Positions 19,748-56,518 of a stretch of 64,000 bases of DNA are shown one piece after another (the first letter of the stretch is position 1; the number at the start of each line of letters is the position of its first letter). Where the stretch lies: positions 480,001-544,000 of the forward strand of contig CM000432.1 in NCBI GenBank assembly GCA_000165345.1. The letters run 5' to 3'. The notes under the pieces were generated by a model, which saw nothing but the letters and a program-made list of their open reading frames with translations, was not told the origin of the DNA and ran no database searches. The translations under genes and the position numbers were made by a program.

Positions 19748-21109
19748 TTGAATACTTCTTCTCAATTCATCATTTTAAGATATATAATTAATAAAATGAC
19801 AATATTATTTAAAAAACTTAAAGAAAATGAAACATTTAAACATTTCTTTCGTCAAGTCTCAAAATACTTGGAAGGTAACTCAGATGAAAGCAAAGAAAAT
19901 AAAAGTAATATCTCTAAATGTAACTTAAAGACAAATTATCAATTAATAAAAAGAGAAAATGGTAAAGAAAATAATTATATTAGTGTCAATAACACTGAGT
20001 TTTCATCTGGAATTTTTGAATTTAGTAATAACTTCGAAAAAAGTGAATATAATGAATCAAAACCAGTTAAAAAATTCAAATTTAACATTGGGCAGATTTT
20101 CACAAATAGGATTCTTTCTAAACAAAATGATTATAATATGAAAAGGATTTATACATATTATAGAGAATGTTACAAAAAACAAATTGAGCCAGGTAAAACC
20201 TTAATAGATTTTAGAAGAGAGATAATCGGAGAAATGTCAGAAATTATTTGGAAATATCACCTTAATGAAGAAATACTTTTCCTTACAGTACATTTCATGG
20301 ATAATGTTATTATTAAAGATCAAATAGAGGAAGAAAACTCATTAGAAAGATTAAGATATTTGGGCTTCACATGTCTATATATCACTATTAAAATTGAAAG
20401 AGTGGTGAATTTTAACTTTAAAGAAATTATTAAAAAGCTTTCTTTAAATTCTATTAAATTAATTAGTATGGAGAAATATGTGTTAAATCAACTTACATTT
20501 AAGTTGAACCCTATTTCATCACTCTTTCTTCTGCAATTTCAAATGGGAATTATAATGGAAAGCTATTTAAAGGATATTATTGGGGTAGAAAATATTGACT
20601 ATTCAAGGAAAAACTCAGAAAATAAATATTTTAATTATAGTTATTCAGATAAATATAATAGCCAGATTGTTCAAAGTTATAATTCAAATAGAGTTGGAAA
20701 CGAAGATCAATTGGAGAACAGTTCATCACTATTAATCAATGTATTGAATATGAAAAGTAGCAAAGGGATAAATAAAGTATTGGAATATTTCATCAGCTGT
20801 TATTTATTGGAGATATGCCTCTATGATATTGAAATATTAAAATATTCTCCTTTATCTCAAGCAGTTTCTGCACTATTCATTGCGAAAGAATGTTTAGGAG
20901 CAAGAAAGGATAGCATTGAGGAAGAATGTATTAACGAATATTTTAACATGGAAGTATTGATCGAGGATTATGTGTACAGAAATATTAATGCGATTAAAAG
21001 AACATTAAAATATCCCTACATTAAAAAAATTTCTACAACAAAGAAATACCTAACGAATGAATATATGAACGCAGCTAATTATGTTTTGAGGCTTATATAC
21101 CCAAAATAA
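19748..21109 (+). CDS. Cyclin (cyclin-box fold protein)
   Basis: Cyclin box region IIGEMSEIIWKYHLNEEILFLTVHFMDNVI...LERLRYLGFTCLYITIKIE...YVLNQLTFKL matches MRAILIDWLVEVHEEYKL.ETLYLTVNYIDRFLS...LQLVGVTAMLIASKYEE. The true start may be an internal Met (for example 19796). Confidence 0.65.
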   Translation: MNTSSQFIILRYIINKMTILFKKLKENETFKHFFRQVSKYLEGNSDESKENKSNISKCNLKTNYQLIKRENGKENNYISVNNTEFSSGIFEFSNNFEKSEYNESKPVKKFKFNIGQIFTNRILSKQNDYNMKRIYTYYRECYKKQIEPGKTLIDFRREIIGEMSEIIWKYHLNEEILFLTVHFMDNVIIKDQIEEENSLERLRYLGFTCLYITIKIERVVNFNFKEIIKKLSLNSIKLISMEKYVLNQLTFKLNPISSLFLLQFQMGIIMESYLKDIIGVENIDYSRKNSENKYFNYSYSDKYNSQIVQSYNSNRVGNEDQLENSSSLLINVLNMKSSKGINKVLEYFISCYLLEICLYDIEILKYSPLSQAVSALFIAKECLGARKDSIEEECINEYFNMEVLIEDYVYRNINAIKRTLKYPYIKKISTTKKYLTNEYMNAANYVLRLIYPK

Positions 21110-39007: not shown

Positions 39008-41338
39008 ATGATGCAGTTTCCAGAGCTGCTTAAAAGTTATTTATTAAAAAAAAAAAAGTTGGAAGACTTATCCCCAATTTATGTTGAAATACTGAATTGG
39101 TTAGATTCAGATTCAGAAAATTATAGCTTAACAATTAAGAAATTAACTCAGCTATGCAATTACATGTTATCAAATTTCAATTCAAATGGACAGATTAACT
39201 CCCACTTAAACTATCTTTGCTCTGATATTCTCTCAATTATTTATGATAGAAGCTCAAAATATATTTGTTTTCCTTCCAGTTGCTATTGTAATATATGTAA
39301 TCCATTTGAAAACATGAAAGGCTATGAACAAGAATACGAGTTCTGGAAACTACTTCGTGATCTTTCAATGAATATAGCTTTAAAGTGCTCTCCTAAAGAA
39401 GGTTATATAATCTTTATTGAAGTGATCTTAGGTAGTATTAGCTTGCCAATATTCTCAGATAAAGAAGAATTGTCTTCACAGAAAACTCGAGAAGAAAGTC
39501 AGAATATGTATGAAAAAATCAATCCAGTACTATTCTCAAAAGAAAAAAAAATTCTTCCAAGGTTTTATAGATATTTGGGACTTTATTACTCTCTTATATG
39601 TATCTCAAGAATGAAAAGAAACAAAGCACAATTTATTACTAGTGTGTGTTCATTGGTACTACGAAAACTTGTGTATGATATAGAATGTAATTCACTTTAT
39701 GCATGCAATTGCAATCCCAAAATGAACGGAACACACAGATATTGTACAACTCTAAAGATGCTTTTTTTGAAATATTTAGTTGATAATATCATAAAGCTTC
39801 TGTTTGATTGTTTGACAGAAAGTAAGAGTGATGCTGAATATAAAGATCAGGAAATTGGAATTTTCAATTCAGAATTATCTGAAGGAAATATTAATGTTAC
39901 TCAGCATACTATTTATTCATTTTTAATGAAAGTTCTAGAAAATATATTAGTAATCGATTTACACAACGTTGAAATTTTGAACAATTCTGGAATTTACTCC
40001 AAAAATAAAAACTTTAATCAAAACACCGGCTTATTTTCAAGTGTTTTGACAAATAAGCCAACAGAGTCAATTTTGAATGTTATTTCATCTGAAATGTTGG
40101 ATTCGGAACTTCAAAAGAACTTCAGTAATAATAAGAATGAATGGGTGGAAATAATTTATAAATTATGCTACAATATTAGCTATTTATCGCCATATTCAAT
40201 GATTGATACTCTAAACAATATCCCTATTTGTGTATACGATGTTGAGACTCAATCAGGAGATCTAGATGTCACACCATTAACTCTTTCATGCTATGCATAT
40301 GCATTATTCGTGATATTGGAAATAAAATACCCAATTGCAGTAAATTACCTATACCCAAAAAAAATAATTTCACTGACAACAAAATTAAACATAATTTATA
40401 GAGCTACTACAATATTTTTGATCTTTAGTGATGGTAAAAAACTTGGGCATGAAATAAATCGTAGAAGTTTAGGAAATCAAGAAATATTACTTTCATATTT
40501 TAATGCTTTTCAACCAAAAAACATTTCAAAAAGTGTAGAGTTAGTTTACAAATATCATGCCTTAATATTTAATCGACTACAGGAAAAGGCATATTTTCTA
40601 ATAGATAATAACATTAACAACTTTTTAAAGTGTAAGAAAACTGCTCCTAATCTATTTAGCACTATATATGGTTTAAACTGGCATCAAAATATTTTGGTTA
40701 AGCAGGCTATGCTTTCATTTACTAGAAATATATCTGATATAATGCAATTGAACAATTTAAACAAGTTAAGTTCTAAATTGAGAATAAGCATAAGTCTATA
40801 CAAAAACTTATTTGATAAATTTACAAGATCATTAAATGAATGCTACCGCTATTCAGTACTCTTTAATCTTTACTTTGATTTGATGGAATTTCAAAAGGAT
40901 CTATTATTCAAAAATTTAATACACTCTGCTAATGTAATTATTGGAGTTTTGGACGTCATCCGTGGTATATTATGGAAAGATATATGCAACAATGGATGCG
41001 ATATTTCAACATATATTAAGGATATAAATAAAATTATTATATTTTCTTCAACATTTTTTACAAATTTCAAAAAAGTAAATCTTGATTCAAGTCAATCTGA
41101 TAAAATGATGCTAATAGTATTAAATCTAATAAAACTCATATTACTTTCATATAAAAATAACGGAACGAGACTTGTAAAAGACATTGTTAAATACTTAGTT
41201 AAAGAACCAAATACTATCAAAAAATATATATTTCATATTAAATCAGTTATTTCAGAAATGGAAAGCTCTAATTTTAATCAATTTGGTACAGTGCATTTTA
41301 TCATTGAAGATATTGAGGAAATACTTGATTCTTTTTAA
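39008..41338 (+). CDS. Hypothetical large helical protein (776 aa)
   Basis: Long ORF with L/I/N-rich, probably alpha-helical repeat character. No family recognised. Confidence 0.4.
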   Translation: MMQFPELLKSYLLKKKKLEDLSPIYVEILNWLDSDSENYSLTIKKLTQLCNYMLSNFNSNGQINSHLNYLCSDILSIIYDRSSKYICFPSSCYCNICNPFENMKGYEQEYEFWKLLRDLSMNIALKCSPKEGYIIFIEVILGSISLPIFSDKEELSSQKTREESQNMYEKINPVLFSKEKKILPRFYRYLGLYYSLICISRMKRNKAQFITSVCSLVLRKLVYDIECNSLYACNCNPKMNGTHRYCTTLKMLFLKYLVDNIIKLLFDCLTESKSDAEYKDQEIGIFNSELSEGNINVTQHTIYSFLMKVLENILVIDLHNVEILNNSGIYSKNKNFNQNTGLFSSVLTNKPTESILNVISSEMLDSELQKNFSNNKNEWVEIIYKLCYNISYLSPYSMIDTLNNIPICVYDVETQSGDLDVTPLTLSCYAYALFVILEIKYPIAVNYLYPKKIISLTTKLNIIYRATTIFLIFSDGKKLGHEINRRSLGNQEILLSYFNAFQPKNISKSVELVYKYHALIFNRLQEKAYFLIDNNINNFLKCKKTAPNLFSTIYGLNWHQNILVKQAMLSFTRNISDIMQLNNLNKLSSKLRISISLYKNLFDKFTRSLNECYRYSVLFNLYFDLMEFQKDLLFKNLIHSANVIIGVLDVIRGILWKDICNNGCDISTYIKDINKIIIFSSTFFTNFKKVNLDSSQSDKMMLIVLNLIKLILLSYKNNGTRLVKDIVKYLVKEPNTIKKYIFHIKSVISEMESSNFNQFGTVHFIIEDIEEILDSF

Positions 41339-41346
41339 TTAACGTA

Positions 41347-44300
41347 TTAAAATAAAAAGAAACTATAAATAAAATCGATCTTCCTCTTCTCGACATTGTG
41401 AAATAGGTTCCAATATTTAATTATACATACGTTATTAGGGTCAAGCAATTTTGAAAATTTCCATAACTTGTTGTAAACTGTCCTAATTAGCCACGAAGGG
41501 TATTTTTTCTGTATTGTTTTTGATCTAAGACTTTCAATTTCAATCGTTTTTAGATATGAAGAAATCATACAGGTATTATATGCAAGGCTTACAATACACA
41601 TATCAAAGTCAATGTTAATTATTTTGTTGCTGTTTAGATATTCACTGATTCTGATAAGACTTTTAAACTCAAAATTTGACGAAATCAATTTAATCAGTTC
41701 ATTTTCAAAAATCAATTCGAGCGATTTATTTATAACAAACTCGGTTCTACCATTTATTTGTTCTGAAAATAATATGAATCCTAATATCATCTTTAAACTG
41801 TAGCTTTGATTTAATTTAATTCTGGAACTAAACTCTTCTTCAATAACTTCCAAACCATTATGTTTGGATGTTTCTTGTTTATAAAGCTCAATAGACATGT
41901 TGTATTTTTCAAAAATACGTTTTGGATCATCTCCAATATCATAGTCAAGAAATTCTGCATAGTTAAATATTACGTAGCTGCTGTTCGGAAATATTGAAAC
42001 AGCTTTTTCATATAATAACTTTGAAACATCAATAATGTTATAAATATCGATAATTATTCTCGCATAATCAACCATATTTTGTGGGCAAAAAGAGTCATTA
42101 ATTATACAATGATTCATTATCCATGGCCTCCATGACTCATTCCAATCCAAAAGCTTTCTTTTGAATGAAAAATTAGAGAAGTCATTGTAATTTTTCTTTT
42201 CAACGAAAATATTAGTCTGAACAAGCTTTAAATCTTCAATCGGTTTCCTTTTATATAATGAATAGTGTGCATTTCTATAAACAAGATCAAAATATCTAGA
42301 TTGGCTATCTAATTGGATTCTCCAACATGTCCTTTGAAAAATGTTTTCTTGATTATTGCAACGGTGATTTATATTGTCCAAGAAATTAGTTACATGAATC
42401 ATTGTAATTGCATTTTTATCGCCTCTAGGAATTGCGCATCGATAAATGCTAAGCAACAGATATTCAGTTTTATATTGTTGTTGCATGGTTTCATATAGTT
42501 CTTTTAGCGAAATGCAGGCTGATATTGAATACATGAATTGAGTTCTTCTTCTAATTTTTATATGTTCATATTGAGGATGGGTAACTATCTTTGTCTTCGT
42601 TGCTAATCTTAATGTTGCGCTGACAACCATATCTGAAAGTATTGGCGTGTGATTTGGTAAATTTGAATTAATCCAACCAACCAATCTAGACTTTGAAGAG
42701 GATGCGTTGTTTTCTGGGATAAGTCCTGTCTGAATTTCACTAAATGGAAACTTTGAAATTGAAAAAGAAAGAAAAATAATAGAAGTTGCGAAAAAAATAA
42801 AACAAGCAATTCTATTATTAAAATATCTTTTATTTGGATTAATTGCTTTATTTTTATTATATTTAATTCTAAATATCCATAATAAAATAGGTTTATAGTA
42901 ATTAAATATAAAACTTAAGTATTTCCTTGATGCAAATAAACTAGAAACAACTGCAATATATGGTAAGGCCAATACCCTTAATCTTGAAATAATAATTGCC
43001 AATAGACAGAAAAAAATGGTTTGAAAAGTCAAAAAAGATATCGCAGTATCTTGATTTTCAAAATTTATATTATAAAACTTATCAAGTAATAAATTTTTTT
43101 TATTTTTGTAACTGCTTTGCTTCTCTTTCAAATTTTTCGGGTATTCATCTTGCAAATTATTCTTAAAACAGTGAACGTTGCTTTGCTTCAACGAAATAGC
43201 TGCTTCAGGAGAATAAGATGCTGCCGTAGAGACAATTGAAGAATTTGATGAAGAATCGGATATCTCATCATTAATTTGAGAGCAATCCTCAAACTGATAT
43301 GAAAACGATGATTCGATATTTTTATATGGGAAATATTTTGAAGCCCGAATATTTGCTGTATCAATAATTATTGAGAATAAAATAAGAAAGGTGCCAGGTA
43401 TAAAAATAAATAATACTCCTGAATTTTTTATCATCTCCAGCTGTTCTTTAGTAATAAAAGAAAATTCTGAACCTCCCATTTTGTAAATCATCGTGTCGAA
43501 GTTAGCAAACTCCTGACCAAAAATTGCACTTTTTAGCATATCGAAGACGTGTGTATCGTGATCTGAAAATGGATTTAGAATTAACTTGAAAACTAAAAAT
43601 AGCGCTAATGAAATAATGCCAGAAGTGAAAGAATATAACAATGAAAATTTTTCCCGTTTAAACAAGATTTTGCAAAGTGAAATTGAAAGTAAAATTGAGA
43701 CTCCAATTTGAGGCAGAGGTGTCAATAAAATATAATAATTGAAAAAATGTAATAAATACGAAGTAAACATGGCAATCATATTGAAAAAAATCAATTTTCT
43801 GAGAACCAATATAAGTTTTGAATGCTCACATCCAAACAAAAACAGAGCATAAACTGATAATATTTGAGTGGAAATTACAAACACAGAAAATTGCCAGAAT
43901 TCTAGAAGTATAACCGATGTAAAATAAAGTAAAATCCATTTTTTTTTTTGATTTCCCCTGTTTGTATATTTAATTATTGAAATTAATATCATATTATTGA
44001 TCCAAATAAACGGAAGAGCAAAATTTTCTCTTAAAGGCAAACTAGAAATTCTTGATAGTAACCTTAATCTAAAATTTGCAAATAAAAATCCCATACAAGT
44101 TAATCCACTAATATATGATCCGTCAGCGATAAATGTACTCGTTCCGCATAAAACTCCCATTCCTATTCCAAGTAATGAGTTTACAAAGAAAAAATAAAAA
44201 TTATATGGAGTAGATAAAAAAACGAATTCACTGCTTAAATTATTAAAGCCAAATGTATTTTTTAATAAATGCTCGCCATTAATGAAAGAATAAATAAGAT

Positions 44301-44745
44301 GAATGATGAATTTTAACTTGAAATAAAACTCTAAAAAAAGCTTATATAAAATACCCAATATAACTTCTTGATAAATATTAAATCTTGAAAGTGAATTAAT
44401 TATATCAGGATATTCAGTTCTGTCATCAGATATCATTTTTTTTATTATATTATATATGCTTTCGGAAGAATTAACAATGTCATCATAAAAAGAAAAATAA
44501 AATGCTGTTTCGCTAAACAATGACATTTTCTGTTCTTCGTATGACCGTAAGAGCATTTTTCTATGCCTAAGTATCAGAAATGATGAAAATATGATGCTAG
44601 AAAGGACAGTCATCCAAAATGTTTTATTCCAAATTTTTTCGTCGCAAAAATTTGAAAAATTATTCTCAGAATAGGCATTTAACTCATGTTTTAAAATTTT
44701 GTCATGTTTATAATTTACTCTATATTTGTTTTTATGCAAATTCAT
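41347..44745 (-). CDS. Polytopic membrane protein (about 12+ TM in first 650 aa) with 480-aa C-terminal soluble helical/TPR-like domain. TMTC-like glycosyltransferase is a hypothesis.
   Basis: 1132-aa ORF. Many hydrophobic helices (LSSIIFSSFLIL, FVNSLLGIGMGVLCG, ...). C-terminal YEKAVSIFPNSSYVIFNYAEFLDYD is TPR-like. Architecture resembles TMTC-family (DUF1736 plus TPR) transferases. Not verified. Confidence 0.4.
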   Translation of the reverse strand: MNLHKNKYRVNYKHDKILKHELNAYSENNFSNFCDEKIWNKTFWMTVLSSIIFSSFLILRHRKMLLRSYEEQKMSLFSETAFYFSFYDDIVNSSESIYNIIKKMISDDRTEYPDIINSLSRFNIYQEVILGILYKLFLEFYFKLKFIIHLIYSFINGEHLLKNTFGFNNLSSEFVFLSTPYNFYFFFVNSLLGIGMGVLCGTSTFIADGSYISGLTCMGFLFANFRLRLLSRISSLPLRENFALPFIWINNMILISIIKYTNRGNQKKKWILLYFTSVILLEFWQFSVFVISTQILSVYALFLFGCEHSKLILVLRKLIFFNMIAMFTSYLLHFFNYYILLTPLPQIGVSILLSISLCKILFKREKFSLLYSFTSGIISLALFLVFKLILNPFSDHDTHVFDMLKSAIFGQEFANFDTMIYKMGGSEFSFITKEQLEMIKNSGVLFIFIPGTFLILFSIIIDTANIRASKYFPYKNIESSFSYQFEDCSQINDEISDSSSNSSIVSTAASYSPEAAISLKQSNVHCFKNNLQDEYPKNLKEKQSSYKNKKNLLLDKFYNINFENQDTAISFLTFQTIFFCLLAIIISRLRVLALPYIAVVSSLFASRKYLSFIFNYYKPILLWIFRIKYNKNKAINPNKRYFNNRIACFIFFATSIIFLSFSISKFPFSEIQTGLIPENNASSSKSRLVGWINSNLPNHTPILSDMVVSATLRLATKTKIVTHPQYEHIKIRRRTQFMYSISACISLKELYETMQQQYKTEYLLLSIYRCAIPRGDKNAITMIHVTNFLDNINHRCNNQENIFQRTCWRIQLDSQSRYFDLVYRNAHYSLYKRKPIEDLKLVQTNIFVEKKNYNDFSNFSFKRKLLDWNESWRPWIMNHCIINDSFCPQNMVDYARIIIDIYNIIDVSKLLYEKAVSIFPNSSYVIFNYAEFLDYDIGDDPKRIFEKYNMSIELYKQETSKHNGLEVIEEEFSSRIKLNQSYSLKMILGFILFSEQINGRTEFVINKSLELIFENELIKLISSNFEFKSLIRISEYLNSNKIINIDFDMCIVSLAYNTCMISSYLKTIEIESLRSKTIQKKYPSWLIRTVYNKLWKFSKLLDPNNVCIIKYWNLFHNVEKRKIDFIYSFFLF

Positions 44746-45135
44746 TCTTCAAGATTTAAAATAAATTATGGTAAAATCTATGAAGTTCCATTAATTTAAT
44801 TGTTATCATTTAACTTTTTTTAGTGATTTTAATGCAATGAATTGTTGCGCCTTTATTGGTGGGGTCAAAGATGTTAAAAATATATATAACGTGAAATAAT
44901 TCAGTTAAAATTATCAATTAAGAATCGATAAATGCTAATAATAATTAATTACTTTATTATATTAGTTTTATCAGACTATTAAAGCGATGTTATTTTCTTC
45001 CTAAAAATTTTTATGAGTTAAAGAATATTTAATCCAAATTTGGTACTTAAAGACCCAATTTAGTGATTAAATTCATAAACTTTAAATTTATTTCAAGATT
45101 TTTAATATATATAATACTAAAATCTAACTTAATAC

Positions 45136-46788
45136 CTAAATTCCATAATTGCTTTTTACTGAAAAATTGAATTTTCTAAAGAACTTGTGGAATATTGTTA
45201 AAAAGGAAAATAAAATAGCTATTATTAGAGATGAAGAAATTAAAATCCCCCAAATCTCATATTTTTTGTTTTTTAAAACGACATATCTTTTTACCAGTAT
45301 TTTGGATAATACATTTTTGTGAATATCCCTTACGTGGGCATTCGTCAATTTTCCTTCATAATAGTTTGTGGCTCCTATATCGGAATTAGAGTTATTTAAT
45401 TTGTGTCGGAAATTATTCGTAGTTTTCGGTAAGATGCCGTTTCTATCTTTAGAATTTAGATAGTTATATCTTATCATGATTTTATTTTCATTCAAAATAA
45501 AAGTGATCTCTTTGTATATAAAAAAAGTAGCACCAAGTATTATTTCGTTACTAGAGGAGTTTTCTCCATTCTTATCCGCCCCTATTTCTGAATTTATCAA
45601 GTTATTACTTGCTATTCCTAAACAATAAACTTTAATATTACCTTCTAAAATTTTATTTAAGTATAAATAAGACTCTGGGGGCCAGTTTATTACTAACTGT
45701 TCCGTCAATTTATTTCTATTATTGTTGAACACAACTTTAATATTAGGAAATTTATCAGTTGAAATCCCGTTGAGCATTCTCCAGCATGTAAGACCATCTT
45801 TTTCATCATGCCCAGAAATTTTTGGATAGTATTTTGAAACATTATTAAACAGACCTCTGGTAATTTTTTTAAATAATCTAGCAGGAAAAATTGAAATTGT
45901 AGTTCCTGTATCAAAAATTGCTTTGAACAACCTTTCATTTAATTTGGTATCTAATTCACGGGTATTTGAATCAACTTCAATTTTGCTTATATAAGCACAG
46001 TACCTTTCATCATTAATACACCTCGTAATATTATAATTTTCAAATGGATAATTCATCATTTTAGTTTGATCAAAGCAGGTAGACCCAAAAGTTAACTTTC
46101 CTCCATCCTTTTCAAAAAAAATTGAAATTATTTTATCGGAATCAGTTTTTCTTACTTCACCACTTTTGAAAATATAGTTGATTATTTGATTCATTTCTTT
46201 ATTACTGAAGTTTGCAAGGCCCATTATACCTGATGCTTTTTGAAATTTAAAAAAGTTATTTTCAATGATATTACATCCGAAAACGAACTTATTCTTAAAT
46301 TTCTGTCTAATTTCCAAGTTGGACGACAGCTTATTTTCAAATTCAACAAAGTCCTCAAAAAAGTATCCAAGTATACGGCTACCTTCTGAATATTTAATAT
46401 CGTAAACGCATTTGTTGTTCAGAAAACTCTTATTATAATTGGGATAATTCATACTGATTCTTCCATGAATACTTTTATTTATTATATCTGTTTCGTTATT
46501 TGGAGTATTATTTCTCTTACATTTAATAATATTACTAGTGTCTGACAAATTAATATTAAATGGCTTATTTTCATGTGTTCCACAGTTAATACAATCTGAA
46601 CATGCAAAGCCAGTAAGAGAGCTTCCCGTATCTATAATAAGAGTCTGCTGCTGAGTAATTGGAAACCCCACATTAACTTTAATAAAGTAATAACCATATT
46701 TGTGTACATTTCCATACAAGGGTAATGTGATCGTTTTTCCCTTAATAATTACGAATAAGGTCGTAATCAAAAAAATTAAAAGGTTCAT
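45136..46788 (-). CDS. Pepsin-family (A1) aspartic protease with signal peptide and C-terminal transmembrane anchor
   Basis: Signal MNLLIFLITTLFVIIKG. Catalytic motifs IIDTGSSLTGF and AIFDTGTTISIFP. Multiple Cys pairs. C-terminal TM IWGILISSSLIIAILFSFLTIF plus short basic tail. This is a plasmepsin V/BACE-like topology. Confidence 0.85.
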   Translation of the reverse strand: MNLLIFLITTLFVIIKGKTITLPLYGNVHKYGYYFIKVNVGFPITQQQTLIIDTGSSLTGFACSDCINCGTHENKPFNINLSDTSNIIKCKRNNTPNNETDIINKSIHGRISMNYPNYNKSFLNNKCVYDIKYSEGSRILGYFFEDFVEFENKLSSNLEIRQKFKNKFVFGCNIIENNFFKFQKASGIMGLANFSNKEMNQIINYIFKSGEVRKTDSDKIISIFFEKDGGKLTFGSTCFDQTKMMNYPFENYNITRCINDERYCAYISKIEVDSNTRELDTKLNERLFKAIFDTGTTISIFPARLFKKITRGLFNNVSKYYPKISGHDEKDGLTCWRMLNGISTDKFPNIKVVFNNNRNKLTEQLVINWPPESYLYLNKILEGNIKVYCLGIASNNLINSEIGADKNGENSSSNEIILGATFFIYKEITFILNENKIMIRYNYLNSKDRNGILPKTTNNFRHKLNNSNSDIGATNYYEGKLTNAHVRDIHKNVLSKILVKRYVVLKNKKYEIWGILISSSLIIAILFSFLTIFHKFFRKFNFSVKSNYGI

Positions 46789-46899: not shown

Positions 46900-46943
46900 A
46901 GTGCATGCATTCTGGGGAAATTAATTTAATCATTTAGGCGGCT
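46900..46943. promoter_or_regulatory. Same composite element AGTGCATGCATT ... CATTTAGGCGGCT, about 115 bp upstream of the aspartic protease ATG
   Basis: Exact 12-mer agtgcatgcatt identical to 30294-30305. catttaggcggct is identical to 8269-8281. Confidence 0.45.
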
Positions 46944-47009: not shown

Positions 47010-50000
47010 TCATTTATTTTTTCTACGAACCTTGTTATCAATCATTATTTCATTTTTGTCTCCGAATTTTTCATCGCATTCATTTCCGTTAAAGAAGTTC
47101 TCAATTCTGCTTACAGTTGAGATACCATTAATTAGTTCAGTCTTAAACAATACATCTGCCTTATTAAACATTCCTTCTTTAAGTGAAACAATTATAAATT
47201 GGGAATTAGGGAAATGATTTTTGATCATCTTCCCAATATTCTGCGTATGCCCGAGATCGAGCGCAGAATCAATCTCATCCAAAATATAGACTGGCGCAGG
47301 CTTGAATCTTAGCATCGATAGAATCAATGATAGTGCTAATAATGATCTCTGTCCACCACTAAGTTCAGTCAAAGACTTTTTCCAAATTCCACCAAACCCA
47401 ACTTTAAATTCTAGCCCTTCATAAAAACTCTCAACATTAGTTTCCGGATTGAAATAAGGGACAAGCTCTGCGTTAGAATTTGGTAGAAGAGTACTATATA
47501 TTGATTTAAATGATGAGTTCACAGTTTTCCAAGTATTTTCCAAAGCTTGTCTTTTTTTCTGATCCAAATCACTTATTACATCTTCGATTTTATCTTTATC
47601 TTTTATTACAATATCTCTTTTATTGATTAATTCATTACACTCGGCGTTAACTCTATCGTACAAATTTAAAATTCTTCTGTTCACATTTTTAGAAAGTGAG
47701 ATTTGCTCATTCTGGAGTTCTTCCAACTTTTCTACACAACTCTTATATGAATGCGCCTCTAAATCAATTTTATTAGTAAAATTTTTATCCAGGAGCCATT
47801 CGAACCTTCTGGACATCGAGTCTTTTAATTTATTTTTTTGTGACAAGTCGGTTTTAAGTGTTTTTATTACATGAATAATCTTAGAATTTTCAATCTGCTT
47901 ACCATTAATCAATTTTTCAATTTTCTTGATCTCTGATTTATACTCCTTTATTATATCGTTGCTCGATTCAATTTGTTGCTGAAGCTTCATTAACGAAGAC
48001 TTGCTTTCATTAAGTTGGGATTGGAAATTTTTCAAAGTTTCGTTTTGATCCTCGATTTTTTGTCTTATATCGCTAATATTATTAGTTTTGCCGAAAATTA
48101 AATCTGATATTTGGTCTAATTCCGCCTTCAATGCTTTTTGTTCAATTCTAGTATCAGAAGTCATTTTTTCCAAATTTTTATATGAGGCTGTTAAATCTCT
48201 AATTTCTCTTTTTAAATGATCTATTTCTACTTCCAAATGTTTTTCTCTAGATTCCTTTGTATCTTCAAATACTTTAATTTCGTTTTCAAGCCTGGATTTA
48301 TTTTCTTTCAAACATTTCTCTTTATCAAGTAACTCTTGATGCTCGTTCTTTAGTGCCATTATTTCTTTCAAATATTCTTCAATCTTTGATTCAGCAGATT
48401 CTTCTTTCAGTCTTGTTATACGTTCTTCTAAAAGTTTAAGCTGGTGTTTATTTATGTCTAATTGTATTAGGGAGTGTCTGTATGTATCTGCAGCCTTGCC
48501 CAAATCCAATAAAATTTTATTTATTTCTTCGATCCTTTTGTTATTTGCTAGTATTTTAAGTCTAAGATTATTGTATTGCTTATATGCTGATAGAATACTT
48601 CTTTGGTTACTTGGAATAGATCCACCTGATAAAGTTCCACTGGGATCGTATATATCGCCATTTAATGTTACAGTTCTTGCTAGTATTCCAGGATTGAATG
48701 TTATCATCTTGGCGATATTTTCATCTTCACAAATAATTGTATGCCCAAAACAAAACTTAATAGCAGGCTCTAGCTCTTTATCAAATTTTAAAATATTCAT
48801 TGCACTTAAAACACGTAAATCTTCTGTACTGTTACAATTAATCAAGCTTCTGGCAGAATTTAATGTTTTTTCTGGAATTGAAGGATCCATAATTTTATCT
48901 AATGGTATTATCGTAATTCTTTTTTTAATTAATCCACTACTCAGAAGTTTCTTTCCAATTTCATGATTTTCGACCACCAAATTGTACAGTCTCCCTCCTG
49001 CTATCATCTCCAATGCTATTGAATATTTAGAGTCTAAGTAATCTATAAGTTCAAATACAGACCCCTTAACTTTTGTTTTTTGAGCTTTTGAATAATCTAA
49101 TAGAGTATCCACTTCATTTATATGAGCTTGTATTGCCAACTCACTGGAGGTTCCTACATTATAAATGCATTGCCGAGTGCGAATGAACATCTCGATTGGC
49201 TGTAGTTGAATTTCTAAAGAGTCATTGTCTAATTTTATTTTTCTTTTTTCAAGATTATATTTTTCACATAACTCTGCATCTTCCTTTAAATTAATTACTT
49301 CACTTTCTAGTTTTTTAATTTGACCATTCATGTATTGATATTCTTCATCTGGAGTCATTGACTTATGTTTGCTAGAAGTAGATGAGCTCTTAACAATTTG
49401 GTCATTTAAAGGCCTAATTTTCTTTTCAATTTCCCCGATTTTCATTTTGACTTTTTTTTCTTGAACAGAGACTTTGGCCAATTCTTTTTCAGTATCAAAT
49501 AACGACTGCCTCAGTGACTTTTGCTCGGAATTTATCGAATTAATATCGCATCCTGCTCTAATTCCTTGAAGAGACTTTTTATTTGCTTCCATCTTTTCTT
49601 TCAAATCACTAATCTGCTTTTCCAGTTTAAAAAATTCTTCAGATTTCTTTATTAAGTTTCCTTGATTTGAATTTATACGAGGATTAAGCTTATCCTCGAT
49701 TATTTTCTTTTGGTTTAAATAATCTTTAAGTAAGTTTTCTTCGTCATTCAGATCTATTTTCAATTCATTAAGCTGAACTTGAGTTAATCTAACTTTTGAC
49801 TCTACATCTGAAATTCTGTCTTTACAGGTTTTTAGTGGGGCTGACCACTCTGTAGACAATTTATTTTCCTCTTCCTCAACTAATTTTTTTAAATTTATTA
49901 TTTTTTCTTTTCCATCAGATATAGCCTTTTCAATCCCACTTAATGCAATTTCAGAGTTATTTAGTTCGCCCTCAATTTCCAATACCTCCGAAGATAAGTT

Positions 50001-50720
50001 ATTATAATTGTGCAAAGTACAAATTCGCTCAATAAACTCGATTTCTTCATTGATGCTATTCCATTTGAGATAATCAGATCTCTCCTTCTTGAGTCGTTCA
50101 AGTTTTGGTATTATATCCTCCTCTAGCATTCTATTAATTTCTTCCAATTTGCTATCTTTTTTTTCGATAAGTTTTAAGCTTTGCTGTTTCTTTGTTTCAT
50201 ACATCCTTGTACCTGCAGCTTCCTCTACCATTGATAGTAATTCTTTAGGTTTCATATTAATAACTTTTGTAATTCTCCCTTGCATTATTAAAAAATGAGA
50301 GTTGTTCACATTTAACTGAACCGAATGAAAAAAATTTGTTATTTCAATTGGTTTAACAACACTTCCGTTTAATAAATATCTATTCCTTCCTCCAGTAGCG
50401 ATCTGTCTTGTTACCGTAATCTTGTCCAAGTCCCTATATAAAGGCGAGGAATTGGACTTATCATCATTATTAAAAATAATAGAAACAGATGCTTTGCTAA
50501 TTCCTGCTTGACCAGATTTATAAACCAGTTCCTCAAGTTTGTTGATGCGTATCTGTGACAAATTAGTTATTCCAAGCACAAAGCAAATTGAATCCAAAAT
50601 ATTCGATTTCCCACTTCCATTTAAACCTGTTATTGCATTAAATTTTGGATTAAATTTCCCTATTACTGTTCTCTTTTGATAGGACTTAAATCCATCAAGA
50701 ATTATTTCCTCAATGTACAT
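47010..50720 (-). CDS. SMC2: Structural maintenance of chromosomes protein 2 (condensin SMC2)
   Basis: N-terminus [58 protein letters not shown]...[11 protein letters not shown] is nearly identical to SMC2 ([58 protein letters not shown]). Long coiled coils, hinge, and C-terminal [18 protein letters not shown]...[10 protein letters not shown]. Confidence 0.9.
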   Translation of the reverse strand: [1236 protein letters not shown]

Positions 50721-51232: not shown

Positions 51233-53932
51233 ATGCAATACGTTGATTCATTCTCATCTCGTCAATTATTTGACCTCGTTAAATCAATAGGAGAATGTCG
51301 CTCTAAACATGAAGAAGATAATATTATATTAAATGAATCATCCATGTTGAAGATCAAACTAATTCAAAACTCTTTATCATCCAATAAGCTACGTGAATAT
51401 ATGATAAGAGCAATATATATTGAAATGCTGGGCCATGACGCTTCTTTTGCCTATATTCATGCAATTAAGATGACCAATGATAAGAACGCTTTCGTAAAAA
51501 GGATTGGTTATCTGGCATGTTCTATATTTTTAAATAAAAATCACGAACTTTTGGTTCTACTTGTTAATACACTACAACGAGATCTTAATAGCAGAAATCA
51601 GCTTGATGTGGCATCAGCGCTTTCAAGCCTACCTTATTTATTAAATTTTGAAATATTTTCTTCTATAGAAAACTCACTATTAATGTTATTATCTCATCAA
51701 ACACCGGCAATAAGGCGAAAGGCATATTTAGCTTTAATCTGTGCATTGGAAATAAAGCCAGCAATAATAGAGGAAAACGCCGATATTTTGAATAGGGGGT
51801 TGTGCGATTCAGATATTTCTGTCAAAAATTCAGTATTATATTTGATAGATAAGATCAGTTCATATAATCCAAAGCTATGCATTCCGCTGATACCTCATTT
51901 AACAGCAATAATGAAACAAATATTAGAAAGTAATATCCCCAAAGAATACGATTATTACTTTATTTCTGCCCCATGGACACAAATTAATATTCTGCGTACG
52001 CTTTCGAAAGTCGCTTCTTTTGAAAAAAACACTAATCAGATATATGAAATACTATACAATTTAATAAAGAAAGTTGAATACTCCATCTCTTTGCCATCTT
52101 ATAATGTAAAATCAATGATATATCCTTTAAATACTAGGAATACTAGTAATACAGCTAATATTTCGTACGCAGTACTTGAATCTTGTATAGACACCATCGC
52201 TTCTATTAATCCAAACAATGAATTACTGGATAAAGCTGATGAAATAATTTCGAGATTTTTGAATTCTGATTTAAATTACCTTAAATACATAGGTATCAAG
52301 AGCCTCTCAAAAATCGCTCTAATAGATCCCTCTTATGCAATTCCACACCAAATTGTTGTAGTGGACTGTCTTGAAGATAAAGATGAAACTATTCGTAGAT
52401 GTACGCTTGAATTATTATGTAATATGTCTAATCCTCAGAACATACAAGTTGTAATATCTAAACTCATTAATAATTTGAAGATTTCAACGGACATTCACTT
52501 TTGCAAAGAGCTGGTAAAAAATATACTTTTGTTAAGTGAAAAATTTGCTCCGAGCTATAACTGGTATTTAAATACAATGGTTAGTCTATTTGAACTATCA
52601 GGGGAATTTGTTGGAAAGGATAAAGTCAATAATATTGCACAGATAATTGCAGAAGGTCCAACAGGCAATGATATATCCGATCATGAATTTAGAGTTCATG
52701 CATCAACTCTGTTTTTACAATTGCTTAAAGAAAAGGTGAATATATTACCAGAAATATTGTATAATTTAGGAATTTGGGTTATAGGCGAATATGGTTCATG
52801 CGTAGAAAATGATGTTAATGAAATTAACACGTTGAAAATTCAATATGAAGTTACAGCACTTCTTTACGATATTTTTCAAAAACTAAAAATCTATATTCGT
52901 GTTTGTCAGAGTGACATTAAATGTTCAAATAAATCGCTTGCAAACAGTGTAACTACTTTTAGAACTAATACGAAATTAGAAACTATTTCAATGATTATTA
53001 CAGCACTTTTGAAATCTTATTCTTATACAATTATTTCTTCCAAAAAACTGAGCCTTTCAAAAAACAATACTTGTATTGAAAATGAAATTAACGGGAAATA
53101 CATTATTTTTCTGGAAAAAATGAATGATGTTTACAATCAAATTTTTAAAGATTCTTCTTACATTCCATCTAATCTCATAAATCAAAGAATCAAAGAGTTT
53201 ATTTCAATAATCCATTTAAGTGATCAAACTAATTCCAAATGTATTAATATGGAAAGTGAATATGTAGAATTACTGAGTTGCATTCTACCTTTTGATGCAT
53301 CTTGCGAAGAAATTTATGTAGATAGAGAACTTTCATTTCTAGATGAGCTTGTTACTGAATATAAACTCTCAGAAAAATACATGAATAGAAAAGGTCGTAA
53401 AAATCCTTATTATTCAGCAAAGAACATTAATTTGAGTCAAGGATTGCAAATTACTGAAATGGAAACGATAAAAGAACGAGATCTTATAGAAGTTTTTTCA
53501 AATCCTGAAATGAATTCGGAGCGTGAAATTGAGCAACGTAATATTGAAGTACAAGTTATAAATCACAAAACTCAACAATTGGCCAATCCCTTCACCGAAA
53601 CGAATATTGAAAAGATTCACGGTTCAAACAAAACAAAAACAGTAAGAAACTTGAATTGCACCCTCCGAAATAGTCAAATTAGTATGGATTCATCTAGTAA
53701 TAAAGGCTATAATACAAAAAAATGGAGTCCAGAAGGTTTCGGAAAACACGAAAAACTGCAAACCAGAGGAAGAGATCTGGGATCTAAATTAACCAATAAC
53801 CCTAAAAGCATATTAGTTGAATCAAAAAAAGATTGTCAAAACTTTTCGAGTAAGCAAAGAGAGGCAAACGCTTTGTTTAGCGGTATTTCAAATACTCAAA
53901 AAAAGAAATCACCTTCCATAGTTAATTCCTAG
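51233..53932 (+). CDS. Adaptor-protein complex large subunit (adaptin; closest to the AP-4 epsilon / AP-3 delta type)
   Basis: N-terminal adaptin trunk IRAIYIEMLGHDASFAYIHAIKMTNDKNAFVKRIGYLACSIFL...LLVNTLQRDLNSRNQLDVASALSSL resembles AP4E1 (LGYDVSFG.IHAIKLAQ....EKRVGYLAVSLFL) and the general adaptin motif (MLG.D..F......L......KRIGYL). Confidence 0.7.
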   Translation: MQYVDSFSSRQLFDLVKSIGECRSKHEEDNIILNESSMLKIKLIQNSLSSNKLREYMIRAIYIEMLGHDASFAYIHAIKMTNDKNAFVKRIGYLACSIFLNKNHELLVLLVNTLQRDLNSRNQLDVASALSSLPYLLNFEIFSSIENSLLMLLSHQTPAIRRKAYLALICALEIKPAIIEENADILNRGLCDSDISVKNSVLYLIDKISSYNPKLCIPLIPHLTAIMKQILESNIPKEYDYYFISAPWTQINILRTLSKVASFEKNTNQIYEILYNLIKKVEYSISLPSYNVKSMIYPLNTRNTSNTANISYAVLESCIDTIASINPNNELLDKADEIISRFLNSDLNYLKYIGIKSLSKIALIDPSYAIPHQIVVVDCLEDKDETIRRCTLELLCNMSNPQNIQVVISKLINNLKISTDIHFCKELVKNILLLSEKFAPSYNWYLNTMVSLFELSGEFVGKDKVNNIAQIIAEGPTGNDISDHEFRVHASTLFLQLLKEKVNILPEILYNLGIWVIGEYGSCVENDVNEINTLKIQYEVTALLYDIFQKLKIYIRVCQSDIKCSNKSLANSVTTFRTNTKLETISMIITALLKSYSYTIISSKKLSLSKNNTCIENEINGKYIIFLEKMNDVYNQIFKDSSYIPSNLINQRIKEFISIIHLSDQTNSKCINMESEYVELLSCILPFDASCEEIYVDRELSFLDELVTEYKLSEKYMNRKGRKNPYYSAKNINLSQGLQITEMETIKERDLIEVFSNPEMNSEREIEQRNIEVQVINHKTQQLANPFTETNIEKIHGSNKTKTVRNLNCTLRNSQISMDSSSNKGYNTKKWSPEGFGKHEKLQTRGRDLGSKLTNNPKSILVESKKDCQNFSSKQREANALFSGISNTQKKKSPSIVNS

Positions 53933-54862: not shown

Positions 54863-56518
54863 ATGGGAAACACATTGAACTTTGATAATGAAGAACAACT
54901 GGTATTATTAACAACTCATTCTAACCCTTTATTACCACTGAAAAGGTCACATTCTAATTTGGATTTGAATAGCGGACTATCGTCTAGGACGGATTCTTTG
55001 CAATGCATATCTAGCTCTAAAGTTGAAAATTCTATTTCCAATGTACTTTTTAATATTTCGGAAAGAATTTCGAAAACGAATGGAATCATTTACTTTTTTT
55101 CTAAGATGGAGAAGAAAGAAATAGGACTGGATCATTCAGATCAAGAAACTTTTTGTGAATCAAATTACGTTTTTGAAATAATGGATCTCAAGGAAAAAAG
55201 AGCTCAGAAAGAGTCGAATGTCATTGAATCAAATGGCTTTGGCTTTGGAGTTCGCACAATTAATGGGGCAGAAAGAAATCTAAGTCATGAAAGTGGATTT
55301 GGGTTTGAAAAAAAAGAATCAATTGAAAGTTCTGAAATTTCAAAGATCGAAATTGATATTCCTGAGATCCAAAATTCAGTTTCTATGTTCGGAAATAATA
55401 TTGCAAATATGTTAAAAAGTATTCGTGTAACGAGTAAAAAATTTGTTATATTTGGTAATAAGAACAACCACAAACCATTTTTAAGCCCTGGAATTATTGA
55501 CTCATTTTTACCATATATTTTGGATGAAACTCTATTATCCTGTTTCCTGGTTTGTCCCCATTGGCTACTCACGATAACCGAATTCATCAATGAATATTAT
55601 TGCAAATCTATTGATAATCAGTTTAGAGAAACTTACAGAAAATATCTTGATTTAGAGCATACAACTATTACCATACAGCCAGTTCTAACTGTTGGTGGAA
55701 GCGTACGTATAGATCGAGTTTTATACGCTAAAGTGTTAAAAAATTGCGTAAACAAAACCTCTTGCCTAACTTACAACTTTAAGTACAAAAATACTTCTAT
55801 AATAAAAGATTGTCTAAAAAAAGAGAACATCTCTCAGAGAAACTCTCTTTGTCCAATAATCAAACCATTAATTAACAAACCTTATTTGTACTCTCAAATT
55901 TCAAATACTCCGTTCATTTCTTGCTACAAATTCGTGGCTAATAAAACAGGTACTAAAAGAATACAATGGGCGCATAAGGATTTATCTAGATGCCATTGTG
56001 AAGAGGTTGCAGTTGCTCAAACTACTACTACATCAAATGTAAATGTTGGAGATCGTATTGAAATTGCAATAAATTTGAGTAATTCTTTTGGTATTGTTGA
56101 TATTGAATCAATTCACTTCCTGCCATTACAATTTGAAATAGCTAGTCCTGAAAAGTGTGAAATTGAAGATATATACACTTCTGGGGCAGATTGGAGATTT
56201 TATAATAGTGATGACGGGGACATTACTGAGTACTTTAATGTTCCAAATCTACTACCGCAATTTAAGGTAACTTCGCTAGAATATGCAGGGACAGATATAA
56301 TCACTTGTAAAATTACGTATAAAGCTATTTCTTCAGGGCTTTTAGCTAATTCAAAAGAACACTTCGGAGTTGATATATCTGTCGTACCAAGAGAATATGC
56401 GATCATTTCTGCATTGAAAAGAAAAGGACTCCAGCATGATCGATATAGCCCGCTTCAAATGAGGGTCGATGATCAACTAGTTTTGTACATCTCAAAAGGC
56501 GGAGCAATTCCTACATAG
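54863..56518 (+). CDS. Hypothetical protein with possible F-box-like motif
   Basis: 551 aa. LSPGIIDSFLPYILDETLLSCFLVCPHWLLTI loosely fits the F-box pattern (LP.EIL..I...L....L.....VCK.W). Otherwise unrecognised. Confidence 0.35.
   Translation: MGNTLNFDNEEQLVLLTTHSNPLLPLKRSHSNLDLNSGLSSRTDSLQCISSSKVENSISNVLFNISERISKTNGIIYFFSKMEKKEIGLDHSDQETFCESNYVFEIMDLKEKRAQKESNVIESNGFGFGVRTINGAERNLSHESGFGFEKKESIESSEISKIEIDIPEIQNSVSMFGNNIANMLKSIRVTSKKFVIFGNKNNHKPFLSPGIIDSFLPYILDETLLSCFLVCPHWLLTITEFINEYYCKSIDNQFRETYRKYLDLEHTTITIQPVLTVGGSVRIDRVLYAKVLKNCVNKTSCLTYNFKYKNTSIIKDCLKKENISQRNSLCPIIKPLINKPYLYSQISNTPFISCYKFVANKTGTKRIQWAHKDLSRCHCEEVAVAQTTTTSNVNVGDRIEIAINLSNSFGIVDIESIHFLPLQFEIASPEKCEIEDIYTSGADWRFYNSDDGDITEYFNVPNLLPQFKVTSLEYAGTDIITCKITYKAISSGLLANSKEHFGVDISVVPREYAIISALKRKGLQHDRYSPLQMRVDDQLVLYISKGGAIPT

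Follow-up and report, generated by a model that had tools for sequence, protein, structure and literature searches.

CpASP3 (cgd4_2190), a predicted membrane-anchored aspartic protease of the plasmepsin V/ASP5-like family in Cryptosporidium

We analyzed the aspartic protease gene cgd4_2190 of a C. parvum-type genome and assign its product, CpASP3, to the alveolate plasmepsin V (PMV)/ASP5-like family ('clade D') on the basis of sequence comparison and a structural model. CpASP3 is probably a catalytically competent A1 endopeptidase of type I topology that resides in the secretory pathway, is made without a prosegment and matures secretory proteins.

Identity of the gene and its locus

The open reading frame listing contained an unbroken minus-strand frame with an ATG start, encoding 550 aa. 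All coordinates refer to the window, i.e., the whole 64-kb stretch of DNA that was analyzed.

45136-46788, minus strand: coding sequence of the PMV/ASP5-like aspartic protease, a complete single exon (550 aa plus stop)

The protein differs from a Logan protein at 3 positions over 550 aa and from C. tyzzeri TRY52142.1 at 18 amino acids. The gene adjoins DPY19 (cgd4_2180) and is therefore cgd4_2190, which is listed as CpASP3 in a 2026 review. The gene order adaptin-SMC2-ASP-DPY19 is common to the window and C. serpentis (contig L002), and we conclude from synteny that the frame is cgd4_2190/CpASP3 of a C. parvum-type genome. The names CpASP1-5 reportedly go back to Wallbank 2025. Public annotations of the orthologues read "membrane associated aspartyl protease" and "putative plasmepsin V". 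Since both the gene and its family assignment are already present in public annotation and in the literature, their novelty is low, and our analysis adds detail rather than discovery.

Synteny also identified the true orthologue of the gastric species (P0033, P0179 and P0180), located between SMC and Dpy19. The C. muris, C. andersoni and C. serpentis proteins P0010, P0020 and P0021 were rejected as CpASP3 orthologues, as synteny showed them to be a paralogue at another locus. The divergence between CpASP3 and its C. serpentis orthologue was 37%, the same as for the adjoining DPY19; fast evolution as a sign of host interaction was rejected on these grounds.

The preliminary description had drawn on a promoter element in arguing for a protease that processes secreted proteins.

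46902-46909, no strand assigned: palindromic TGCATGCA, an ApiAP2 site of the AP2_1 type, located 121 nt ahead of the ATG within an intergenic region of 221 bp

The element is indeed present and occurs 8 times in the window (about one occurrence expected); a copy also precedes the C. serpentis orthologue (L002 9873), at a distance of 128 nt from its ATG. The AP2 domains of cgd2_3490 and cgd1_3520 bind TGCATGCA (PMC4117751), and over-representation of the AP2_1 site has been described for the upstream regions of 55 co-expression clusters, which together hold about 1,034 C. parvum genes. It is thus a generic site that adds nothing to the secretory-processing argument, and its conservation says nothing about the function of CpASP3.

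Catalytic domain and active-site residues

A search of Pfam with the 550-aa protein returned TAXi_N as the top domain (1.1e-17) and Asp (3.2e-13), both above the gathering cut-offs. The catalytic domain was delimited with the AlphaFold model and the alignment to P. vivax PMV (PvPMV), which begins at query residue 21-23; the motifs and the insert within it were located by motif scan and alignments.

45454-46731, minus strand: pepsin-fold catalytic domain, approximately aa 20-445
46618-46632, minus strand: first catalytic motif, DTGSS (D53)
46408-46521, minus strand: nepenthesin-type (NAP1) insert, C90 to C127
46378-46392, minus strand: flap motif Y133-S-E135-G-S137
45898-45912, minus strand: second catalytic motif, DTGTT (D293, codon gat at 45912-45910)

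A scan of the whole protein for D[TS]G found only D53 (IIDTGSSLTG) and D293 (IFDTGTTISI), so that both catalytic motifs are intact, as first described. D53, G55 and S56 were invariant in every aligned group; T54 was invariant in the Cryptosporidium orthologues, with Thr or Ser elsewhere. Together with Y133 and the psi-psi-Gly motifs IMGLA and ILGATFF, the two D(T/S)G motifs identify an A1 protease of the Pfam Asp and TAXi_N type. In the flap, Y133, E135, G136 and S137 were invariant among the 12 aligned Cryptosporidium sequences; in the alignment of alveolate homologues, E135, G136 and S137 were invariant and Y133 was occasionally replaced by Phe. Both catalytic Asp residues, the flap Tyr and Glu, Q183 and T297 were invariant in all orthologues, including those across the deepest split of the genus. 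The alignments further showed conserved Cys at positions 63, 66, 69, 90, 127, 172, 335 and 389. The first strand begins only about four residues after the predicted signal cleavage site, i.e., a prosegment is absent.

In the alignment, E135, Q183 and T297 of CpASP3 are equivalent to E506, Q549 and T686 of Toxoplasma ASP5 (TgASP5), where E506 contacts the P3 Arg (bioRxiv 10.1101/2023.02.16.528815). These S3-pocket residues were considered as evidence for RxL specificity and rejected: they are invariant throughout the alveolate PMV/ASP5-like family and, because of this family-wide conservation, do not discriminate between its members.

The nepenthesin-type insert of PMV, which the preliminary description had proposed to look for, was found between C90 and C127 (for insert-1 of ASP5 and PMV, see bioRxiv 10.1101/2023.02.16.528815). 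It contains a variable Asn-rich stretch (pLDDT 45-63). Four Cys are present in the insert of C. muris, C. felis, C. bovis-type sequences, PMV and ASP5, whereas the lineage from C. parvum to C. canis has kept only the outer pair. The C. parvum lineage also lacks two further Cys of PMV and ASP5, and CpASP3 carries an additional clade-specific pair, C257/C264. With 11 Cys, about five pairs are predicted for CpASP3 (pairing from sequence), compared to seven disulfides in PMV and ASP5. The helix-turn-helix of PMV, the other feature named in that description, is absent, as it is in Toxoplasma ASP5, and residues 308-343 of the PvPMV chain remained unmatched.

Predicted membrane topology

Hydrophobic segments were sought in a Kyte-Doolittle scan (19-residue window, mean >1.6), which returned aa 1-23 and aa 509-538 and no others in the 550-aa protein.

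46738-46788, minus strand: predicted signal peptide aa 1-17, MNLLIFLITTLFVIIKG, followed by KT (hydropathy and -3/-1 rule; kept in orthologues)
45262-45453, minus strand: juxtamembrane stalk aa 446-509, of low conservation (pLDDT <50 for aa 445-509 in the full-length model)
45190-45255, minus strand: predicted transmembrane helix aa 512-533 (IWGILISSSLIIAILFSFLTIF)
45139-45189, minus strand: basic tail aa 534-550 (HKFFRKFNFSVKSNYGI), 17 residues at the C-terminal end, cytosolic in the predicted topology

The N-terminal segment has an h-region from L3 to I15 followed by IIKG/KT, which fits the -3/-1 rule and agrees with the cleavable signal peptide described initially; both its cleavage and the membrane insertion of the protein are predictions from hydropathy alone. 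The hydropathy maximum (2.55) lies at aa 515-533, and an equally placed segment was found in most orthologues, including P0033 of the gastric species. The proposed single C-terminal helix with a short basic tail is thus recovered, with its core at aa 512-533 followed by HKFFRKFNFSVKSNYGI, and basic residues directly after the helix were kept across the orthologue alignment. By eye, no KKXX ER-retrieval or YxxPhi motif was recognized in the 17-residue tail. Two hydrophobic segments with a basic tail after the second predict a type I topology like that of PMV, ASP5 and BACE, in agreement with the preliminary description, which had named PMV and BACE. Its remark on the rarity of C-terminal anchors among pepsin-family enzymes does not hold within the PMV/ASP5-like family, where an anchor is the norm (102 of the 136 top homologues).

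Family placement by sequence and structure

In a single-sequence search of the PDB, only PvPMV matched (3.8e-26). The profile search again ranked PvPMV first (3.7e-64, 220 bits), followed by BACE1 (1.2e-15, 60 bits). One paralogue and one unknown sequence are included in alignment A2 and hence in the profile searches that used it; the rank of PMV is not affected, as the single-sequence search agrees. When the profile search was word-indexed, it reached only plant A1B proteins, and PMV and ASP5 were reached by exhaustive search. The AlphaFold model of aa 18-450 (pLDDT 83.8, pTM 0.87) was used for the fold search, from which the first full-length model (11 sequences, pLDDT 53.5) was excluded. 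Foldseek ranks 1-4 were all PvPMV (1.6e-28 to 3.3e-27), followed by generic pepsins and BACE at 1e-21 and weaker, and every strong match was an A1 protease. Therefore, both sequence search and Foldseek uphold the earlier view of an A1 aspartic protease nearest to PMV among characterized relatives.

A neighbour-joining (NJ) tree placed the CpASP3 clade among PMV, coccidian ASP5 and gregarine homologues, with plant A1B proteins as the outgroup. No grouping with soluble digestive plasmepsins or cathepsin D was observed, a placement that had been named as one that would speak against the PMV/BACE-like assignment. The tree contained three PMV-like Cryptosporidium lineages (clades A, B and C), each with 100% bootstrap, of which clade A includes CpASP3. 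This number is consistent with the three C. parvum aspartyl proteases that resemble PMV/ASP5 according to Dumaine et al. Clade A is the least similar of the three to the PMV, ASP5, gregarine and Amoebophrya homologues. NJ bootstraps with amino-acid distance/Dayhoff-6 recoding were 43%/29% for A+B, 36%/6% for A+B+PMV and 8%/6% for A+PMV. These values do not single out any Cryptosporidium lineage as the 1:1 orthologue of PMV/ASP5. The likeness to PMV thus stands in that PMV is the nearest solved relative, but it has to be qualified: CpASP3 belongs to one of three such lineages, and to the one most divergent from PMV/ASP5.

Comparison with characterized aspartic proteases

Plasmodium PMV (PDB 4ZL4, 6C4G, 8TYF, 8TYG) is the best match of CpASP3 in both sequence and fold. 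The two proteins share a type I topology (predicted for CpASP3) with a C-terminal transmembrane segment, the CxxCxxC motif together with the nepenthesin-type insert, the flap xEGS and the Gln and Thr lining S3, and in neither is removal of a prosegment needed. They differ in the helix-turn-helix insert (insert-3), reported as Plasmodium-specific and missing from CpASP3, in the flap, where PMV has an unpaired Cys and CpASP3 has Ser134, and in the second catalytic motif (DSGS/T in PMV, DTGTT in CpASP3). The seven disulfides of PMV stand against about five predicted ones in CpASP3, with its own Cys257/Cys264 pair, and unlike PMV, CpASP3 has a stalk of approximately 65 residues ahead of the transmembrane segment.

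Coccidian ASP5, the Golgi protease that processes TEXEL motifs in Toxoplasma, resembles CpASP3 in family, anchor and absence of the helix-turn-helix insert, and S505/E506 of TgASP5 correspond to the flap Ser-Glu. In contrast to CpASP3, whose protease domain starts about four residues past the signal peptide, ASP5 has an N-terminal extension of 300-400 residues, extra transmembrane segments and a Gly-rich insert-1. Of the three Cryptosporidium clades, C and B also gave better scores with coccidian ASP5 than clade A did. The Cryptosporidium paralogues are PMV-like as CpASP3 is and lie at other loci; those of clade C (788-798 aa) differ from CpASP3 in having no C-terminal hydrophobic segment in the hydropathy scan.

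BACE1 and BACE2 (memapsins) are type I anchored A1 proteases whose cytosolic tail is short, as predicted for CpASP3. Their prosegment is cleaved by furin, and their protease domain (DTGS/DSGT) lacks a nepenthesin-type insert. CpASP3 has the insert and no prosegment, and BACE1 matched it more weakly than PMV did (60 vs 220 bits; Foldseek 1e-19 vs 1e-28). The likeness to BACE is therefore one of topology and not of membership. Plant A1B proteases of the nepenthesin/TAXi type share TAXi_N with CpASP3, as well as Cys at the C63/C66/C69, C90 and C127 columns, but their flap has Asp-Asn/Gln in place of Glu-Gly and they lack Q183 and T297. These plant proteases are soluble and made with prosegments.

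Proposed role and alternative explanations

The gene, its motifs, fold, family and synteny and the predicted topology are described above; from these points on, we infer localization, activity, substrates and cleavage motif. The signal peptide would direct CpASP3 into the ER co-translationally, and the C-terminal helix would anchor it in a membrane of the secretory pathway, with the basic tail in the cytosol and the protease domain in the lumen. Since a prosegment is absent, the enzyme, like PMV, would probably not have to be converted from a zymogen to become active. It would most likely act as a maturase, cleaving a particular group of proteins on their way through the secretory pathway, and by analogy an Arg-x-Leu-type preference is possible, because CpASP3 retains the flap Glu as well as the Gln and Thr through which PMV and ASP5 contact a basic residue at P3. 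A processing-protease role, as proposed initially, is a plausible candidate function. Several observations count against this best explanation. The CpASP3 lineage is the one least like PMV/ASP5, the NJ bootstraps single out no lineage as their orthologue, the conserved S3 residues are common to the whole family, and of the seven disulfides of PMV and ASP5 two are missing. In MEDLE2 and MVP1, which are known to be exported, a Ser-hydrophobic motif resembles PMIX/X sites rather than RxL.

We consider it unlikely that CpASP3 has a narrower role as the functional equivalent of PMV/ASP5, in which cleavage of a host-targeting motif, in the ER or the Golgi, would license effectors such as MEDLE2 and MVP1 to be exported into the enterocyte. 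PMV is the nearest solved relative, the predicted topology is the same, and MEDLE2 export requires processing at a Leu, for which a PMV/ASP5-like enzyme has been proposed (Dumaine et al.). However, PMV likeness is common to all three paralogue lineages, that of CpASP3 being the most divergent, the NJ bootstraps favor no single lineage as the orthologue, and the MEDLE2 and MVP1 motifs look like PMIX/X sites. Moreover, where the 2026 review cites a 2025 conference abstract, the preliminary evidence for effector processing is for CpASP4 (cgd6_660) and not for CpASP3. The review assigns egress to CpASP2 (cgd1_3690), again not to CpASP3. In Cryptosporidium, family ancestry does not predict role, and enrichment of AP2_1 sites has been noted upstream of clusters expressed late and of Plasmodium sporozoite genes. 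Both points would suit a protease that, despite its PMV-like ancestry, works in the manner of PMIX/PMX or Toxoplasma ASP3 and matures invasion or egress factors after the Golgi, or one specific to sexual or oocyst stages. We nevertheless consider such a function unlikely, as enzymes of the PMIX/X type are soluble and synthesized with a prosegment, whereas CpASP3 is prosegment-less and predicted to be anchored.

Two further alternatives are very improbable. The hydrophobic segment near the C-terminus, with small residues (S, G) upstream, might be read as a GPI-attachment signal of a yapsin-like surface protease. In the yapsin type, this signal lies at or near the C-terminus, whereas in CpASP3 a hydrophilic tail of 17 residues, five of them basic, follows the helix. 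Its conservation in orthologues and in the family argues against a GPI signal and for the transmembrane anchor originally assumed; in addition, the anchored family homologues have a median tail of 47 aa (≤5 aa in only 4 of 102), and the nearest relatives, PMV and ASP5, are transmembrane proteins. It is just as hard to regard CpASP3 as an inactive or decaying paralogue, a pseudo-protease with a non-catalytic role. This view could draw on the degree of divergence, greatest here among the three lineages, on the loss of one NAP1 disulfide, on the Asn-rich low-complexity insert and on the annotated C. hominis model, which misses the first catalytic Asp. Nevertheless, this short model looks like an annotation truncation, the reading frame is intact, all orthologues share the catalytic Asp pair, the flap Tyr/Glu, Q183 and T297 without exception, and the C. 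serpentis divergence matches that of DPY19.

Alongside the secretory maturase that we favor, it is possible, though less than probable, that CpASP3 is a Cryptosporidium-specific, prosegment-less offshoot of PMV/ASP5 with a remodeled insert, a Cys257/Cys264 loop and a substrate set of its own. The remodeling would comprise the loss of the NAP1 disulfide and the gain of the Asn-rich loop in the lineage from C. parvum to C. canis. If so, its substrates might be, for example, genus-specific secreted or host-interface proteins, and CpASP3 would add a third branch of secretory proteolysis, one that could be drugged separately, to those of ASP2 (egress) and ASP4 (export). PMV is a validated drug target in Plasmodium, ASP5 is a virulence determinant in Toxoplasma, and effector export in Cryptosporidium needs proteolytic processing. 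Recognizing cgd4_2190 as one of three PMV-like genes, the most divergent one, with a predicted anchor and no prosegment, helps to prioritize genetic and inhibitor work.

Identification of the protease gene

The window has about 30% G+C and carries long, intron-free ORFs. The protease gene and its surroundings comprise the following features:

28103-30010 (-), cathepsin C-like cysteine protease, 635 aa (Peptidase_C1 1.3e-40 and CathepsinC exclusion domain)
39008-41338 (+), ORF of 776 aa, no Pfam match at E <= 0.001
41347-44745 (-), DPY19 tryptophan C-mannosyltransferase, downstream neighbour of the protease gene (Pfam Dpy19 9e-159)
45136-46788 (-), protease ORF, uninterrupted, 550 codons, ATG start
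46902-46909, TGCATGCA, 121 nt 5' of the protease ATG, within a 221-bp intergenic region
47010-50720 (-), SMC2-type condensin subunit, flanking the protease gene
51233-53932 (+), adaptin N-terminal-domain protein, also flanking; the SMC2/adaptin order is kept in C. serpentis
54863-56518 (+), ORF of 551 aa, no Pfam match at E <= 0.001
56583-60548 (-), ORF of 1321 aa, no Pfam match at E <= 0.001

DPY19 was the synteny anchor for naming the protease gene. Since the C. parvum DPY19 gene is cgd4_2180 (PMC10034466), the cathepsin C-like gene, eight ORFs before the protease ORF, is probably cgd4_2110 (counted among the cryptopains in reviews), and cgd4_2190 appears in a 2026 review under the name CpASP3, an aspartyl protease (PMC13637054), we assigned the ORF to cgd4_2190/CpASP3. 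This gene had been annotated and named before; the remaining C. parvum ASPs are CpASP1 (cgd1_2240), CpASP2 (cgd1_3690), CpASP4 (cgd6_660) and CpASP5 (cgd6_3820) (PMC13637054).

Across its 550 residues, CpASP3 has three differences from a Logan-derived protein and 18 from C. tyzzeri TRY52142.1, which makes the window C. parvum-like. The 90% cluster of the Logan-derived protein includes TRY52142.1 as well as C. hominis PPS96313.1, each labelled 'Aspartic peptidase A1 family'. As deposited, the C. hominis model (P0017, 438 aa) lacks the N-terminal 112 residues, hence the signal peptide and first catalytic Asp, which is probably an annotation truncation and not a true difference. Other orthologues are annotated as 'membrane associated aspartyl protease' (C. 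ubiquitum, chipmunk genotype I, C. canis), '...with a transmembrane domain at the C-terminus' (C. bovis-type) and 'putative plasmepsin V' (C. felis).

Topology and family placement of CpASP3

Both catalytic motifs are intact; D[TS]G occurs in the 550-aa protein only at D53 (IIDTGSSLTG) and D293 (IFDTGTTISI). A 19-residue Kyte-Doolittle scan found hydrophobic stretches only at aa 1-23 and aa 509-538. The former has an h-region (L3-I15) followed by IIKG|KT and satisfies the -3/-1 rule for signal peptidase; the latter has the core IWGILISSSLIIAILFSFLTIF (maximum 2.55) and is followed by the C-terminal end HKFFRKFNFSVKSNYGI, which contains the basic tail quoted in the preliminary description. Signal-peptide cleavage and membrane insertion are predictions from hydropathy. 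A prosegment is absent: the first strand lies about 4 residues past the predicted cleavage site and aligns with the start of the crystal construct of Plasmodium vivax plasmepsin V (PvPMV), and just 36 residues separate this site from D53. A weakly conserved stalk of 65 residues precedes the TM helix.

Both Pfam domains, TAXi_N (1.1e-17) and Asp (3.2e-13), exceeded their gathering thresholds. When all PDB chains were searched with the single sequence, PvPMV was the sole match (3.8e-26); it also led the profile search (3.7e-64, 220 bits), with BACE1 next (1.2e-15, 60 bits). The AlphaFold model of aa 18-450 (106 homologues; pLDDT 83.8, pTM 0.87) retrieved four PvPMV entries on top in Foldseek against the PDB (1.6e-28 to 3.3e-27), followed by rhizopuspepsin, chymosin and BACE at 1e-21 and weaker. 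In an exhaustive HMMER search, 1.84 billion representatives yielded 4,804 relatives (425 below 1e-30), the named ones including Plasmodium PMV, ASP5 of Besnoitia, Cystoisospora and Cyclospora, Selenidium gregarines and Amoebophrya. A hydrophobic segment C-terminal to the protease domain, with a hydrophilic tail (median 47 aa), was present in 102 of the 136 top matches with two catalytic motifs. Therefore, the C-terminal anchor, which the preliminary description had considered a rarity, is the usual architecture in this family. The preliminary interpretation of the protein from its sequence alone was correct: the analyses support both family and topology, the protein did not group with soluble digestive plasmepsins or cathepsin D, and the C-terminal helix is unlikely to be a GPI signal.

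Orthologues and paralogues

Synteny identifies C. serpentis P0033 (664 aa; C. muris CMU_017180) as the true CpASP3 orthologue: its gene, at locus L002, is part of the conserved order adaptin-SMC-ASP-(TRAM/LAG1)-Dpy19. P0010, P0020 and P0021, encoded at another locus (L001), are paralogues. The C. serpentis TRAM/LAG1/CLN8-family gene between protease and Dpy19 (L002 12005-13090, -) corresponds in the window to a gap of only 390 bp (44746-45135), and tblastn detected it nowhere in the 64 kb. CpASP3 and DPY19 are equally identical to their C. serpentis counterparts (37%; adaptin 46%, SMC2 58%), thus CpASP3 is no outlier in evolutionary rate.

In neighbour-joining trees, the Cryptosporidium sequences fell into three lineages, all with 100% bootstrap: clade A (CpASP3 and orthologues), clade B (410-500 aa) and clade C (788-798 aa). 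How these branch with respect to PMV, ASP5 and gregarines received low support (A+B, 43% of amino-acid and 29% of Dayhoff-6 replicates; A+B+PMV, 36% and 6%). For PMV, ASP5, Selenidium and Amoebophrya alike, phmmer scores ranked clade C above B above A. This accords with the literature, in which three C. parvum ASPs resemble PMV/ASP5 (Dumaine et al.) and CpASP2 is phylogenetically nearest to PMV (PMC13637054). CpASP3 is the most divergent of the three PMV-like paralogues. The clade C proteins P0087, P0181 and P0121 are the most similar to PMV/ASP5, and this paralogue may be CpASP2; a hydropathy scan found no C-terminal hydrophobic segment in them, whereas clades A and B have one. C. ryanae KAH8740362.1 (P0062), labelled 'AT hook motif protein', is a PMV-like A1 protease of clade B.

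Comparison with plasmepsin V and ASP5

CpASP3 shares with PMV/ASP5 the cysteines C63-x2-C66-x2-C69, C172, C335 and C389, the flap Y-x-E-G-S, Q183 and T297. The flap Glu, Q183 and T297 are equivalent to E506, Q549 and T686 of Toxoplasma ASP5, residues in contact with the P3 Arg (bioRxiv 10.1101/2023.02.16.528815), but are non-discriminating, because they are invariant across the whole alveolate family. Of the two PMV hallmarks the preliminary description proposed to look for, the nepenthesin-type insert is present (C90...C127), whereas the helix-turn-helix, reported as Plasmodium-specific, has no counterpart (PvPMV chain 308-343 unaligned). The C. parvum-to-C. canis lineage retains only the outer Cys pair of the nepenthesin-type insert, with an Asn-rich, low-confidence loop inside; like PMV and ASP5, the sequences of C. 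muris, C. felis and the C. bovis type have four Cys there. An invariant Cys257/Cys264 pair is peculiar to clade A, whose intestinal species have DTGTT as the second motif in place of DSG(S/T).

The upstream element

The 8-mer TGCATGCA occurs eight times in the window against about one expected, a count attained in 0 of 100 shuffles. Five of these occurrences are outside long ORFs. All eight, with the C. serpentis site, are at the following positions:

2012, 19682/19686, 29053, 30296, 39700, 46902 and 56666, window sites
L002 9873, C. serpentis site

The overlapping double site (19682/19686) lies just 5' of an ORF starting at 19748 (+). In C. serpentis the element sits at a similar position (128 nt 5' of the orthologue's ATG versus 121 nt), which suggests that it is a genuine cis-element and conserved. 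The 8-mer corresponds to AP2_1, a site recognised by the AP2 domains of cgd2_3490 and cgd1_3520 (PMC4117751); the upstream regions of 55 co-expression clusters (1,034 genes) are enriched in AP2_1-like motifs. The element, earlier taken as support for a processing role, is uninformative on secretory processing by CpASP3 and carries no weight.

Possible function of CpASP3

We regard the identity and family assignment as nearly certain, and a type I orientation with a lumenal protease domain as likely. An export-licensing equivalent of PMV/ASP5 seems improbable: effector processing has been linked, preliminarily, to CpASP4 (PMC13637054), and the motifs of the exported proteins MEDLE2 and MVP1 are PMIX/X-like. 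Since CpASP3 is the most divergent of the three PMV-like paralogues, any specific PMV-like function would be hypothetical. Maturation of proteins for invasion or egress, or a stage-specific role, is plausible from the CpASP2 precedent, and we consider it similarly unlikely. The conserved basic tail makes a GPI-anchored surface protease very improbable, and the invariance of the catalytic residues throughout the genus speaks just as strongly against a pseudo-protease.

On balance, we slightly favour a secretory-protein maturase. CpASP3 would then be anchored in the membrane as a type I protein and, as a constitutively competent endopeptidase, would cut secretory proteins within the lumen of the secretory pathway.
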